Origin: a virus
Taxonomy: Duplodnaviria > Caudoviricetes
Strand: one strand, 5' to 3'
DNA: 64,000 bases
Virus record (IMG/VR): IMGVR_UViG_3300028580_000062
Location: 1 to 64,000 of that record
The notes beneath the pieces were generated by a model. That model was not told the DNA's origin, ran no database searches, and was given only the letters and a program-made list of their open reading frames with translations. Both the position numbers and the translations under genes were made by a program. Position 1 is the first letter of the stretch, and each line of letters begins with the position of its first letter. This document shows positions 2,300 through 39,609 of this stretch, piece by piece.

Positions 2300-2440
2300 A
2301 GATTTTCTCCTTTCGGCTGTTAAACCGAAGCGGAGATAACCTGTATGGCTGCCAGTTCTGCTTTTCATAAGATGGTCACCTCATGCGGATTTCTCCGCTT
2401 CAAATCGGTGACCAGCCGTTCGTAAGCTGGCACTCATATT
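2300..2440 (-). ncRNA. Structured 5' leader of sigma-like gene
   Basis: Complementary pairs 2327-2336/2392-2401, 2373-2380/2407-2414 and 2350-2355/2427-2432. Confidence 0.4.
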
Positions 2441-2783
2441 GAAAGTTCTTCCATCCATCAGCTACGAACACACCTCGTGGCCACGAAGAAGGTGAGCAAA
2501 TTTCAGGAAAAGTAGTTTTATGTCATGCTTAGGACAAGAATGCAAAAGCAATAATTCAAATTAGCGATAAAATATTTGCGAACGCGATGTAAATATTCAC
2601 GCAAACAGTAGAAAAATGCATTACAATGTGCTATAATTAAAAAGTGCATTTGTCTTAAAAAATACGTTTTGTCAGAAAGCAGTGGTTTGCTGCTTCTGAA
2701 ATTAAGTATAGAAAATCAGGCTGGTACGTTTGGGTACCGGTGGATATGTTCGGATATGAACGGATACGGAGGTGCTTTTGGCA

Positions 2784-3926
2784 ATGGTGTTTTGTGACTT
2801 CGCTCAGCGCGTATATTCAGTGATTGGCTCCGGTAGTAACACAAGTGCCTTCGCTCGCACACTGCTTGATACCATCGTTGTTTATGAGGATGAAGCTTTG
2901 AATCCGATTCAGGAATTAAAGCCTTCGACTTTCAAGGCCTACTACAATGGAACAAACAACATCACGAAAACAGCAAAAAAAATAAACGCCAACGTGGAGA
3001 CGTCAGCGTTTGAAGAATATATTGATTCTTTCCCGGATAATGCTGTTCAAGGACTCTGTAGTTTATTTGAAGAAGCCATTCCGAATATCACACCATATAA
3101 TGCGAGTCAGAAACTGGCAGAGTTGTTTGCTTCTATTATTTATGAAGCTGCTATGGCAAAGCCAAAGGCTGCGAGCAAAAAGAAAACAAGCGAGGAAACG
3201 ACTACATCCGCGCATGATAAATTGACTGCAAAAATTCTCGCCTCTGGGGAAGCGATGGCAAAGGCCTGGGCCGGGGCTGTGAATGGATTGACGGAGGAAC
3301 AAGAACAGACTGCTAAAGCAAAAAGCATCCCGGTATTAAAGCCGGGTCTACTTTCGGATGCAGATAAGGGATTACTTTGTCAATTCAAAAAAGATGTAAA
3401 AGGACTTTTGAAATACTGTATAGATAACGATCCTGCAGCACAACAGACAAAAATTAGTCTGGCAGATGAATTGCACAGCGTGCATCGGAAGTGGCAGTAC
3501 GACCTGCGCGAGATTGAGGATATCGCTTTCCGTCAGCTTGTAATCGATACGACACAAACTATGGAAGAGTACTCCTATTATGTGTCTGATGAGTTTTTGC
3601 GTCTGATACCTGGCACGGATAGATTGTGGTTTAGAAATGAATCGGCCGAAGATGGTGACCGTCTAAGAAATGTTCTCCAACCGAAATCACATGAATTAAG
3701 GCTTGCAATGGCAGAATTATATAGAAGGTTGTATCCAATTCCAGAGGAGGCAAAGCAGGATGAGGCAGAGCCAGTGGAAGCAGAGACTGTGGACGAAGAA
3801 TCATCAGGTGCCGCAGATGCAGCAGGAGATGGTGTAAGAACTCAAATAATCAACAATCCGACTATTGTAAATCAGTACGGTGAAAAGAATGTTCATATTG
3901 AACATGTTGATAATTTGAAGCTCTGA
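2784..3926 (+). CDS. Hypothetical protein with C-terminal RHIM-like motif (TIVNQYGEKNVHIEHV)
   Basis: Long ORF with GGAGGTG RBS before ATG 2784; first gene of a 3-gene operon. Confidence 0.8.
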   Translation: MVFCDFAQRVYSVIGSGSNTSAFARTLLDTIVVYEDEALNPIQELKPSTFKAYYNGTNNITKTAKKINANVETSAFEEYIDSFPDNAVQGLCSLFEEAIPNITPYNASQKLAELFASIIYEAAMAKPKAASKKKTSEETTTSAHDKLTAKILASGEAMAKAWAGAVNGLTEEQEQTAKAKSIPVLKPGLLSDADKGLLCQFKKDVKGLLKYCIDNDPAAQQTKISLADELHSVHRKWQYDLREIEDIAFRQLVIDTTQTMEEYSYYVSDEFLRLIPGTDRLWFRNESAEDGDRLRNVLQPKSHELRLAMAELYRRLYPIPEEAKQDEAEPVEAETVDEESSGAADAAGDGVRTQIINNPTIVNQYGEKNVHIEHVDNLKL

Positions 3927-36181: not shown

Positions 36182-36718
36182 TTGGAGGAGTATGGTATGG
36201 AAATTTGGAAAGATATACCTGGATATGAAGGAAGATATCAGGCAAGCACAGAGGGAAGAATCCGCAGTGTCTCTAGAATAATACAGGAGAAAAATATCAG
36301 TACAGGAAAGATTTATTATCACAACATCAGTGGCCGAATATTAAAACCTGGTCGGTATTGTAAATCAGGACATTTATCAGTTGTACTTGGACATGGAGCG
36401 GATGGCAGCCCTGTACACCAACTTGTAATGCGTACTTTTATTGGTGAACCACCGGTCGGTATGGAAGTATTACATAAGAATGGCAATCCAACTGATAATC
36501 AACTGTGCAATTTACATTATGGAACACGAACTGAAAACATTCTTGATGTCTATCGACAAGGAGGAAAGTGGAGAAAACTTTCTGTTGATGATGTTGAAGC
36601 GATTAGATTTGGACTTTGGTGTGGAATAAAAGGAGCAGAACTTTCTCGTATGTTTGATGTTGCTCCTATCTCTATTAGCCGCATTAAAAATGAAAGGACA
36701 TTTGCATGGCTAGAATGA
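36182..36718 (+). CDS. Free-standing NUMOD4-HNH homing endonuclease
   Basis: EIWKDIPGYEGRYQASTEGRIRS (NUMOD4); VHQLVMRTF...VLHKNGNPTDNQLCNL...TENI (HNH). Confidence 0.9.
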   Translation: MEEYGMEIWKDIPGYEGRYQASTEGRIRSVSRIIQEKNISTGKIYYHNISGRILKPGRYCKSGHLSVVLGHGADGSPVHQLVMRTFIGEPPVGMEVLHKNGNPTDNQLCNLHYGTRTENILDVYRQGGKWRKLSVDDVEAIRFGLWCGIKGAELSRMFDVAPISISRIKNERTFAWLE

Positions 36719-39609
36719 AAAATCTCAATTTAGATCTGGAGACATTTTCGGATGTCGATCTTGCAAAATGTGGCGTATATAAATACGCCAGTTCACCAGC
36801 GTTCCAAATCCTGCTGTTTGGATACTCGGTCGATCATGGACCAGTGGTAACTGTAGACTTGGCATGCGGAGAGGAACTGCCAGAAGAGATCCTTGCAGCA
36901 TTGACTGATCAATCCGTCGTCAAATGGGCATTCAACTGTATGTTCGAGAGGATCTGTATCTCGACCTACTTACGCAAACACTATCCTGAACACTTCACAA
37001 CTTATAGCATTCCTGAAGATACGGTTCGCAACTATCTAGACCCAGCATCCTGGCATTGCTCAATGGTATGGTCTGCCTATCGTGGCTTGCCGCTGTCGCT
37101 TGCTTCAGTTGGTGCGGTGCTCGGATTAGAGGATCAGAAGATGACAGAAGGGAAGGATTTGATCCGTTTCTTCTGTATGCCACGTAAGTCGGATGGAGGT
37201 AGGAATCTTCCATTGGATGCACCGGATAAATGGGCGGTCTTTAAGTCCTATAACATCAGGGATGTAGAAGTGGAAATCAGCATCCAGGAACGATTGCAGA
37301 AGTTTCCTGTTCCTGAGAGTGTCTGGAAGGAATATGCAATCGACCAGGAAATCAATGATCGAGGCGTCAGGGTTGATATGAAGCTGGTAAAGAATGCCAT
37401 TGCGATTGATGAGCTAACTCACAATAAGTTGATGGATCAACTCACGACCATTACTGGCCTACAGAATCCTAACTCGGTCCAACAGATGAAAGAGTACCTG
37501 GCAACGAATGGCCTCGTCATGGATACCCTAGGAAAGAAGGCAGTGCGTGAAATGGTCAAGACAGCACCAGAAGACATGAAGACGGTTCTGGAGTTGCGCC
37601 AAGAGACTGCAAAGTCATCCATCAAGAAGTTCCAAACGATGGAGCGTGCAGCTTGCAGTGATGATCGAGTTCGCGGGATGTTCCAGTTCTTTGGGGCTCC
37701 ACGTACCGGTCGCTTTGCCGGCAGACTGGTCCAGCTTCAGAATCTGAAGCGGAATGATATGCCAGATTTAGCGGAGGCCCGAGCACTGGTCAAGGAAGGT
37801 AACTATGAAGCGTTGGAACTGCTCTATGACTCAGTGCCTGAGGTCCTATCGGAATTGATCCGGACGGCATTGATTCCAAAGCCAGGATATAAGTTCTATG
37901 TTGCTGACTACTCCGCAGTTGAAGCCAGATGTCTTTCTTTCCTTGCCAAAGAACAATGGCGGATAGATTCCTTTGCGGCCAATAAGGATATCTATTGCGA
38001 AACTGCCAGCCGTATGTTTGGAGTTCCAGTAGTGAAGCATGGCATCAATGGTGAGCTGCGACAGAAAGGAAAGCAGGCAGAACTTGCATGCATTGCTGAA
38101 GGCCAGCTTGTCCTCACAGATCATGGACTGGTACCTATTGAAAAGGTCACAACAGAAATGGGGGTCTTTGATGGTGAGGAGTTCGTGCACCATGAAGGCG
38201 TTGTTTACAAAGGAGAACGAGAGGTAATGACATATGAAGGACTTACAGCAACCCCAGACCATTACGTGTGGGTCGAAGGGAAACAGGAGCCAATACAGCT
38301 TGGAGTCGCCGCCACCTGCGGCGCACATCTCGTACAGTCCGGAGATGGTAGGAACCCATTACGGCTGGATAGAGATCATCAGCCCGGAGAAGCGCTGGAA
38401 CAAGAAATGGAATCATTGTTATGTGCTAACAAAGTGTCATGGGTGCGGCAGTATCCAATGGCAGATATTAGACAGTTTGAGAAGCGGAAAATCAAAAGGA
38501 TGTCAGCATTGTTCTCAACCGAGACTGGCACCGGCATGGTTGTACAAAAGATTGACAGCAGCAAAGCAACGCTGCACAAATCCAAGAAATCCGCTGTATC
38601 AAGATTATGGAAATCGAGGCATCAAATTCGAGTTTTCCAGCATCAACGAAGCCTGCCAGTATTTGATGACAGAGCTTGGAATTCCAGAACGAGAAATGGA
38701 ATTAGATCGAATCGACACAAACGGAAACTATGCTCGTGGGAATCTTCGCTTTGTTACAAGAGAGGAGAACCAGTCGAATCGAAGATTGACGGTTCTGTCA
38801 GAGTTTGCCCAGGAGTATTGGCCATACAGCAGATCAGTTGTAACAAGGAAACTGTCAGAAGGTATGTCTCGAGATCAAATAATTCTCGAAGCACAAAAAG
38901 CAGTAATCGAAAAACGGAAGCACTGGCACATCATCTCGGCAAGGCTAGACTTTATGACATTCGAAATGCCGGACCACATCACCGTTTTACCGTATCGGGA
39001 CATCTAGTTCATAACTGCGGCTACGGAGGGTCAAAAGGCGCACTTATTGCAATGGGTGCGTTGGACCAGGGACTCGATGAATCGGAATTACAACCGCTGG
39101 TTGATGCTTGGAGAGCCACCAATCCGAAGATTGTTGCTTTCTGGTGGGAAGTGGATGAAGCAATCAAGAAAGCAGTGCGTTATAAGACAACAACGGAGAC
39201 ACATGGCCTGAAGTTTATTTGCCAGTCTGGGATGTTGTTTATTCAGCTGCCATCTGGCCGGTCACTCTCCTACGTGAAGCCAAGAATCGGTGTAAATCAG
39301 TTTGGCTCGGATTGTGTTACGTATATGGGCTTGGATTCCACAAAGCACTGGAGCAGGGTGGAAAGCTATGGTCCCAAGTTTGTCGAAAATATCACCCAGG
39401 CAATCTGCCGGGATATCTTGTGCTATGCAATGCAGACATTACAGTTCTGCTTTATCTGTGCCCATGTCCATGATGAATTGATCATTGAGTGCAAGGAAGA
39501 GGTATCCCTGGATGAGATCTGCAAACTGATGGGCAGGACGCCGCCTTGGATACCAGGTCTTTTGTTACGTGCCGATGGTTATACCTGTGACTTTTATCAA
39601 AAAGATTGA
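36706..39609 (+). CDS. Phage family A DNA polymerase, intein-containing
   Basis: DLETFS exonuclease motif, ADYSAVEAR motif A, motif B KQAELA/CGYGG split by the intein, HVHDE motif C. Confidence 0.92.
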   Translation: MARMKNLNLDLETFSDVDLAKCGVYKYASSPAFQILLFGYSVDHGPVVTVDLACGEELPEEILAALTDQSVVKWAFNCMFERICISTYLRKHYPEHFTTYSIPEDTVRNYLDPASWHCSMVWSAYRGLPLSLASVGAVLGLEDQKMTEGKDLIRFFCMPRKSDGGRNLPLDAPDKWAVFKSYNIRDVEVEISIQERLQKFPVPESVWKEYAIDQEINDRGVRVDMKLVKNAIAIDELTHNKLMDQLTTITGLQNPNSVQQMKEYLATNGLVMDTLGKKAVREMVKTAPEDMKTVLELRQETAKSSIKKFQTMERAACSDDRVRGMFQFFGAPRTGRFAGRLVQLQNLKRNDMPDLAEARALVKEGNYEALELLYDSVPEVLSELIRTALIPKPGYKFYVADYSAVEARCLSFLAKEQWRIDSFAANKDIYCETASRMFGVPVVKHGINGELRQKGKQAELACIAEGQLVLTDHGLVPIEKVTTEMGVFDGEEFVHHEGVVYKGEREVMTYEGLTATPDHYVWVEGKQEPIQLGVAATCGAHLVQSGDGRNPLRLDRDHQPGEALEQEMESLLCANKVSWVRQYPMADIRQFEKRKIKRMSALFSTETGTGMVVQKIDSSKATLHKSKKSAVSRLWKSRHQIRVFQHQRSLPVFDDRAWNSRTRNGIRSNRHKRKLCSWESSLCYKRGEPVESKIDGSVRVCPGVLAIQQISCNKETVRRYVSRSNNSRSTKSSNRKTEALAHHLGKARLYDIRNAGPHHRFTVSGHLVHNCGYGGSKGALIAMGALDQGLDESELQPLVDAWRATNPKIVAFWWEVDEAIKKAVRYKTTTETHGLKFICQSGMLFIQLPSGRSLSYVKPRIGVNQFGSDCVTYMGLDSTKHWSRVESYGPKFVENITQAICRDILCYAMQTLQFCFICAHVHDELIIECKEEVSLDEICKLMGRTPPWIPGLLLRADGYTCDFYQKD
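38089..39015 (+). mobile_element. 309-aa intein in polymerase motif B
   Basis: Starts CIAEGQLVLT (block A), TATPDH (block B), LYDI..GPHHRF (block F), ends HLVHN followed by Cys+1. Confidence 0.92.
38234..39007 (+). CDS. Nested HNH homing endonuclease in the +1 frame inside the intein
   Basis: KCHGCG...GCQHC zinc pair, KQRCTNP....YQDYGNRGI, LDRIDTNGNYARGNLRFVTREENQSNRR; GAGGT RBS 8 nt before ATG. Confidence 0.85.
   Translation: MKDLQQPQTITCGSKGNRSQYSLESPPPAAHISYSPEMVGTHYGWIEIISPEKRWNKKWNHCYVLTKCHGCGSIQWQILDSLRSGKSKGCQHCSQPRLAPAWLYKRLTAAKQRCTNPRNPLYQDYGNRGIKFEFSSINEACQYLMTELGIPEREMELDRIDTNGNYARGNLRFVTREENQSNRRLTVLSEFAQEYWPYSRSVVTRKLSEGMSRDQIILEAQKAVIEKRKHWHIISARLDFMTFEMPDHITVLPYRDI

Follow-up and report, generated by a model that had tools for sequence, protein, structure and literature searches.

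The window, by which we mean the whole stretch of 64,000 nucleotides that was analysed, covers positions 1 to 64,000 of IMGVR_UViG_3300028580_000062, a Caudoviricetes record of 73,427 bases in the IMG/VR virus collection that CheckV rates as complete. The family A DNA polymerase (PolA) gene of this gut phage carries in motif B an insert with the landmarks of an intein, and a second open reading frame (ORF) is nested within this insert in another frame. The following features define the locus:

36706..39609, plus strand: family A DNA polymerase gene, intein included, 967 codons (ORF list, Pfam and PHROG)
38089..39015, plus strand: intein in motif B, between AELA and CGYGG, 309 codons, that is, polymerase codons 462-770
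38221..38225, plus strand: Shine-Dalgarno sequence GAGGT, followed by an 8-nt spacer and the ATG at 38234
38234..39007, plus strand: nested +1-frame gene, 257 amino acids (aa) (PHROG HNH families, AlphaFold 2 (AF2) model and wobble periodicity)

The polymerase ORF matches DNA_pol_A of Pfam (E=6.1e-17) and the DNA polymerase family phrog_17 (E=1.4e-124), the latter in two stretches, one on each side of the insert. The insert itself reads C...TPDH...HN between AELA and CGYGG, with Cys as its first residue and TPDH at intein codons 55-58, and its polymerase-frame middle gave no match in profile searches of Pfam and PHROG. An earlier note on this DNA had described Hint intein landmarks in motif B around a middle that matches no domain, and both the anatomy of the insert and these searches bear this out. 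As 36706 mod 3 is 1 and 38234 mod 3 is 2, the nested ORF lies in the +1 frame; the third frame of the window's insert contains 22 stops. The nested ORF spans intein codon 49, upstream of block B, to codon 306, inside blocks F/G. The claim that a +1 ORF at 38234-39007, preceded by GAGGT, overlaps both splicing regions is hence correct.

The same layout was found in the Streptococcus phages Javan113, 101, 104, 107 and 255 and PhiSdyV1524, in the Gardnerella phage vB_Gva_AB1 and in 15 IMG/VR contigs, and metagenomes contain more than 300 clusters of the nested protein. All 20 full-length homologous inteins, which fall into about 9 lineages with about 65% DNA identity, have exactly 309 codons and no stop in the polymerase frame, so that each of these relatives has a single continuous polymerase ORF. 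When one representative of each of the 9 lineages is considered, the +1 ORF always begins at the same ATG, and 13-32 stops occur in the third frame. Divergence across lineages was calculated for polymerase codon positions 1/2/3 in different parts of the intein:

Intein codons 1-48 (Hint only): 0.25/0.15/0.60, the normal polymerase-frame wobble
Intein codons 86-280 (middle): 0.58/0.32/0.25, the wobble of the +1 frame
The two overlap zones: 0.22-0.26/0.12-0.15/0.20-0.26, low at all three positions

In the middle, amino acid identity amounts to 0.47-0.75 for the +1 frame versus 0.19-0.45 for the polymerase frame. Synonymous permutation of the nested-ORF codons gave 9-17 expected stops in the polymerase frame across lineages, and not one of 3000 permutations left that frame open; for the nested ORF of the window, the mean was 10.2 polymerase-frame stops, likewise with 0/3000 open. 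Chance is thus excluded, and the figure of about 1e-4 that the earlier note had given for a frame open by chance was of the right order. The avoidance of stops can be seen at individual sites, since T at position 3 of nested codons never occurs before AA, AG or GA, versus a frequency of 0.22-0.31 elsewhere. Wobble, identity and stop avoidance together indicate that the +1 frame is under protein-coding selection and that the polymerase frame is selected only to stay open, so that selection does act on both frames, as had been proposed. The overlap is real and is maintained by selection in many phages.

Could the overlap nevertheless be an artefact, produced by compensating indel errors or a decaying pseudogene, by an HNH that is truly in frame, or by a +1 ORF that is open by chance? 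A few database proteins do fuse the polymerase and HNH frames, and the frameshift in the L030 allele described below is present in 9 contigs. However, length and start site are identical in isolates and metagenomes (Streptococcus, Gardnerella and gut phages), the 6 fused forms compare with more than 300 nested-ORF clusters, and wobble periodicity and stop avoidance reflect selection on both frames. The occurrence of a common layout in about 9 independent lineages excludes a sequencing or indel artefact. The comparative data already refute this explanation, to which we attach practically no weight. In-frame versions of the nested protein were not found either, the search of longer proteins returning only six frameshifted fusions. 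Free-standing close relatives were also considered, and every candidate checked turned out to be a nested copy on a contig that was fragmentary or misassembled. A 4137-base contig of GCA_029782595.1 (L028) has tandem repeat blocks in its polymerase/intein region, probably by misassembly, and gave rise to a spurious 321-aa database 'protein'.

In the polymerase frame, the insert is divided into three parts:

38089..38397, plus strand: Hint N-lobe, intein codons 1-103, blocks A and B (kept in the mini-intein L024; polymerase-frame wobble in codons 1-48)
38398..38913, plus strand: polymerase-frame spacer, intein codons 104-275, rich in K, R and S and predicted to be disordered (open, unconserved, deleted in L024)
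38914..39015, plus strand: Hint C-lobe, codons 276-309, blocks F/G, ...RLYDIRNAGPHHRFTVSGHLVHN (conserved in all lineages, kept in mini-inteins)

The identification of the insert as an intein is well supported by sequence comparison. All class-1 landmarks are present (C1, T55-P-D-H58, H308-N309 and Cys+1), and C1, T55, H58, H308 and N309 are invariant in the 8 sequences aligned. Homologous alleles with and without the intein were aligned, a check that the earlier note had put forward, and the AELA/CGYGG junctions contrast with AELALGYGG in the intein-less alleles L008, L039 and L040; at the +1 position, Cys is confined to alleles that carry the intein, the empty ones having Leu there. When a profile of the N-lobe made from 16 diverse members was compared with PDB, the top 12 matches were all solved inteins. 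The best was the split intein of the Nanoarchaeum polymerase (E=0.0056), DnaE and RecA inteins followed with E=0.3-1.0, and position 1 of the profile aligns with Cys1 of the DnaE intein chain. The nearest named clusters in the ESM-atlas are all Hint/Intein_splicing (score 0.91), which we take as a lead only. Two results weigh in the other direction. No Hint or intein model of Pfam or NCBIfam matched the intein, its N-lobe, the mini-inteins or the distant relatives scanned, and the AF2 model of the 309-aa intein, made from an 8-sequence alignment, is uninformative with a pLDDT score (predicted local distance difference test) of 35.7; under this shallow alignment, the score falls to about 20-35 in the polymerase-frame spacer. 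Searches of PDB with phmmer, using the intein and the nested protein each, gave nothing meaningful. One distant relative of the intein ends in SN.

The lack of Pfam Hint matches would also fit an insert that is not removed by protein splicing. It could be a group I intron that carries an HNH ORF, or else, in the manner of the ShiLan domain, an insertion that does not splice and is tolerated. The database record of a relative, phage SO-1, does carry the note 'type I self-splicing intron', and a hidden out-of-frame HNH in a non-splicing insertion has been published (PMC11855218). However, no Rfam intron family was found between 37800 and 39300 at E<=1, and an intron needs no open polymerase frame, yet every lineage avoids the 9-17 stops expected there. 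C1, TxxH and HN+Cys do not vary, Cys+1 is restricted to occupied alleles, and the top PDB matches of the N-lobe profile are inteins without exception. Motif B corresponds to the O-helix region of family A polymerases. As the insert splits this motif, a retained insert of about 300 aa should be disabling for the polymerase. An insert that does not splice as a protein is very improbable in our opinion. We infer protein splicing from the conserved catalytic residues, from the existence of natural mini-inteins of 137 and 168 aa, and from the place of the insert inside motif B.

The start region of the nested gene is under visible constraint. The arrangement GAGGT-N8-ATG is conserved in 9/9 lineages; in this region Glu is encoded by GAG and Tyr by TAT without exception, and sites that are synonymous in the polymerase frame are fixed. 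Stops in the +1 frame are located directly 5' of the nested ATG in most lineages, which argues against a frameshift fusion. A sequence scan found no internal promoter or terminator, and the nested gene is therefore probably translated from the polymerase mRNA. Separate translation of the nested protein, suggested in the earlier note, is likely in view of the conserved Shine-Dalgarno sequence and ATG of the +1-frame gene. A second ATG (EMVG, intein nt 257), located 37 codons further on, was rejected as a universal start because it is ATT in one lineage. In L002 (Gardnerella phage vB_Gva_AB1), L012, L013 and L023, the nested ORF has no stop at intein codon 306 and extends 10-13 codons into the C-extein, giving forms of 267-270 aa. 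The 3' end of the nested ORF is thus not fixed.

Concerning the nested protein, its ORF matches HNH endonuclease families of PHROG (phrog_374, E=3.7e-24; phrog_3377, E=1.5e-18; a third one, E=2e-10). The AF2 model, based on 49 homologs, has a pLDDT of 86.6 and is confident for residues 31-245. Residues 1-30 and 246-257 are disordered, and these are the parts that lie over the Hint blocks B and F/G. The coincidence of disordered ends with overlaps means that the dispensable sequence of each frame covers the essential sequence of the other. The domain order is a disordered leader, a beta-barrel with a Cys4 zinc ribbon, an AP2-like region, an HNH-like core and a helical C-terminal domain, in which two elements can be located precisely:

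38435..38512, plus strand: Cys4 zinc ribbon, C68, C71, C90 and C93 (invariant or nearly so in the 49 homologs)
38699..38779, plus strand: HNH-like beta-beta-alpha core, residues 156-182, ELDRIDTNGNYARGNLRFVTREENQSN (AF2 model and homolog alignment)

The core is modelled with pLDDT >90 as strands 156-159 and 171-174 and helix 176-181, which is the hairpin-plus-helix topology of an HNH active site. The region that carries the beta-beta-alpha unit has a YGxRGI motif, the active-site motif reads ELDRID...GNLRF.T..EN, and D158, R159, N170 and R172 are nearly invariant in the 49 homologs. In BFVD, 88 structural matches were obtained at E<=1e-3 (best 2e-11), the matched phage proteins having names such as HNH endonuclease or AP2 domain protein. 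The nested protein is most likely an AP2/HNH-like, DNA-binding and endonuclease-like protein, for which we use no stronger label than HNH-like.

Several observations speak against a functional HNH nuclease. The nested protein has no match in Pfam, and only 2/49 of its relatives touch HNH_3, with E about 0.007. Foldseek comparison of the model with solved structures gave none at E<=0.001, and VIA-align against PDB gave weak rows only, with PacI at Z=4.6 over residues 97-186. Above all, 'DR' is found in 231/232 homologs, Arg159 being where the general-base His of HNH enzymes is expected. We presume that Arg159 is equivalent to the His in the D-H of I-HmuI, on the basis of a manual alignment, which is a lead and not a test. 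The comparison by hhalign of the nested-protein family with the HNH_3 protein encoded elsewhere in the window was weak (E=0.33 over 16 columns). With Arg at the His position, DNA cleavage may not occur or may use another mechanism. The 'clear HNH endonuclease' of the earlier note was thus right as to an HNH/AP2-like affiliation, according to PHROG and BFVD, and overstated beyond that, given the missing Pfam match and the Arg in 231/232 homologs.

These points lead to a different view of the same layout, in which the nested protein would not be a nuclease but a sequence-specific DNA-binding factor with a targeting, regulatory or site-protecting role; cutting would be done by another enzyme, for instance the product of the upstream NUMOD4-HNH_3 gene, or the intein would be mostly vertical. 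The substitution of the general-base His and the poor scores against Pfam HNH models and solved HNH structures would be explained in this way, a canonical HNH_3 gene does abut the polymerase start in the window, and the divergences of intein and extein are similar. Against this, purifying selection acts strongly on the nested frame across distant polymerases, which fits a role in propagation of the element, and there are relatives that keep the nested gene without the upstream HNH_3 gene. Moreover, both the beta-beta-alpha scaffold and the residues that may bind the metal, D158 and N179/N182, are kept, and a co-conversion-like footprint and a patchy distribution, both reported below, indicate mobility driven by DNA breaks. 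A nested protein that is not a nuclease is unlikely in our view, though it is a possibility to be reckoned with. Without a Pfam match and with Arg at the general-base position, nuclease activity and homing by the nested protein are functions that we infer.

Decay of the element was observed in several forms. The mini-intein L024 2856-3266 has 137 aa, 172 codons including the nuclease core having been lost by in-frame deletion, and its exteins are 97% identical to those of the full-length L013. The mini-intein L005 2347-2850 of Streptococcus phage Javan422 has 168 aa and also lost the nuclease core by in-frame deletion. Both keep exactly the N-lobe and the C-lobe. In Streptococcus phage PhiSdyV1524-fexAoptrA (L007, intein 2356-3282), a premature stop (…SQKY*PYTRS…) interrupts the nested gene but leaves the polymerase frame untouched, which is an early step of endonuclease decay. 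In the Logan SRR12996270 contig (L030 1501-4388), a frameshift at an A-rich site near the SGKSKGC codons, with the same protein on 9 contigs, results in a product of 771 aa in which the N-extein and Hint-N are followed by two thirds of the nested protein, its C-terminal part. The C-extein is thereby cut off in an ORF of its own, of 188 aa. This is probably a dead polymerase in a decaying prophage.

The presumed homing site was deduced from the junctions with intein-less alleles, in which the site is of the type ...GCAGAACTTGCA/TTGGGTTATGG...:

38077..38088, plus strand: putative homing site, 5' half GCAGAACTTGCA
39016-39029, plus strand: putative homing site, 3' half TGCGGCTACGGAGG

In the extein tree, the polymerase of the window is sister to the intein-less L039 (support 100/100, 80% identity), and the presence of the intein requires at least 2-3 gains or losses. 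At distances of up to 120 nt from the insertion site, the DNA of the window and L039 has an identity of 0.57, as opposed to 0.715 for the rest. Only 3.4% of 240-nt windows reach a value this low, even though no region of the protein is more conserved than motif B. The reduced identity here resembles a co-conversion tract left by homing. On the other side, intein divergence between lineages is about the same as extein divergence, so that old events or vertical descent account for most of the spread. Proteins related to the nested one with 30-46% identity (P0128, P0142, P0165 and P0203) are also found in the +1 frame of motif-B inteins in other PolA genes, including high-GC ones, and the wider family counts 37,456 representatives at E<=1e-3. 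It is plausible that the arrangement originated by out-of-frame invasion of a mini-intein, as the earlier note had proposed.

The explanation we favour, with a probability of roughly 0.8, is that the insert is a class-1 motif-B PolA intein whose endonuclease slot is read in two frames and whose nested protein drives homing. A ribosome in the polymerase frame would read straight through all 309 codons. The N-lobe (1-103) and the C-lobe (276-309) would form the Hint splicing domain, and the 172 codons between them would be a disordered open tether that selection keeps stop-free and a multiple of three. Splicing would then yield an active polymerase reading AELA-CGYGG. On the same mRNA, the internal GAGGT and the ATG at 38234 would start the separate 257-aa protein of the +1 frame, which most likely targets intein-less polymerase alleles of co-infecting phages. 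Repair would then copy the intein together with the nested gene into the empty alleles.

The novelty of such a layout had been rated too highly in the earlier note, as inteins with out-of-frame or antisense endonucleases are described in preprints of 2025-2026. Gosselin, Arsenault and Gogarten (bioRxiv 10.1101/2025.01.02.630785) reported actinophage inteins with the endonuclease antisense or in 'frame 3' and proposed that such inteins were invaded by free-standing endonucleases; they cite Gorbalenya 1998. Like here, these are unsplit phage inteins with an in-frame middle without recognisable structure and an endonuclease ORF in another frame. Their case with the ORF on the same strand is endonuclease VII-like and in 'frame 3', the other cases being antisense LAGLIDADG or VSR-like, and the hosts are actinophage genes for terminase, minor capsid protein, thymidylate synthase and DNA polymerase, with only Pol III alpha among the polymerases. 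Our case differs in having an AP2/HNH-like +1 ORF in motif B of PolA, in phages of Bacillota, Gardnerella and the gut, and in that the nested ORF overlaps the splicing blocks and does not lie between them. Phillips, DeSimone and Gogarten (bioRxiv 10.64898/2026.09.14.751524) described an out-of-frame LAGLIDADG endonuclease in a cyanobacterial dnaX intein, and cite Gorbalenya 1998 for the first proposal. The dnaX intein resembles ours in the frame dependence of selection, which is relaxed in the extein frame and purifying in the nested one, in having mini-intein derivatives and in its sporadic occurrence, but concerns a cellular gene, a LAGLIDADG enzyme and a different frame. The present element, with an ORF in another frame of an unsplit intein and purifying selection on that frame, is a member of these separate-frame-endonuclease inteins.

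Two other systems are related in part. Dassa et al. 2009 (PMC2677866) described fractured genes in which the two halves of a split intein are separated by a free-standing endonuclease gene. There too, a separately translated endonuclease gene lies inside the endonuclease slot of the intein, but the host gene is broken into two ORFs joined by trans-splicing, whereas here it is a single continuous ORF of 967 codons (broken only in the L030 lineage). The ShiLan domain of Arsenault et al. 2025 (PMC11855218) is an out-of-frame hidden HNH in a phage methylase insertion that is open in the host frame; this insertion has no splicing domain, whereas all intein landmarks are present here.

A further likeness is found in GenBank records, those of Sodalis phage SO-1 (gp38/gp39) and of Jerseyvirus phages with an 'intein-containing DNA polymerase precursor'. 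There too, a motif-B intein of PolA contains a nested ORF of the same family (about 32% identity), and the SO-1 record already lists this ORF as an HNH endonuclease within the polymerase coding sequence, with the note of a group I intron. Unlike here, the nested ORF is in the +2 frame and the site is four residues upstream (GKA|CELGLGYGG versus AELA|CGYGG). L003 2331-3227 (Sodalis phage SO-1) and L004 2337-3233 (Salmonella phage LP31) are related inteins of 299 aa with a +2 nested ORF, and Jerseyvirus and Dhillonvirus phages have the relative of about 32% identity in the +2 frame of the upstream-shifted intein. A literature search found no paper on the PolA motif-B lineage itself.

As the architecture is already in preprints, the present case adds breadth and not a new principle. 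It is a clean natural case of about 770 nt of dual coding in which the disordered parts of each product lie over the essential parts of the other frame, and it shows that an endonuclease-like gene, probably translated on its own, can remain associated with an intein across great evolutionary distances. This bears on the idea that inteins acquired their homing endonucleases from invading free-standing genes. In practical terms, the nested ORF escapes gene callers and the intein escapes domain models, so that the annotation of phage polymerases is wrong at such loci. The Arg-for-His active site poses a concrete biochemical question, namely whether the protein cuts DNA or not. It is tempting to go further and to propose that the PolA motif-B inteins with a nested +1 gene (+2 in the Jersey- and Dhillon-type) make up one large, old and as yet undescribed lineage in phages of many bacterial groups, whose endonuclease would be a distinct AP2/HNH branch with an invariant Arg for His that drives or stabilises the inheritance of the intein by a non-canonical mechanism, such as nicking with a different general base, or by binding only. 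We put this forward tentatively, and with more doubt than confidence.

In the window, the polymerase gene belongs to a replication module whose other members are a DUF2800 nuclease, an Enc34-type single-stranded DNA-binding protein, the NUMOD4-HNH_3 gene, a DUF7768 gene and a VapE-like primase-helicase. One of these neighbours is of the homing type:

36182-36718, plus strand: free-standing NUMOD4 + HNH_3 gene, 178 aa, with the canonical His, directly 5' of the polymerase

This gene overlaps the polymerase start (ATG 36706) by 13 nt. In relatives, its slot holds only an ORF of about 55 aa, so that a second, independent homing-type gene has arrived at this polymerase gene.

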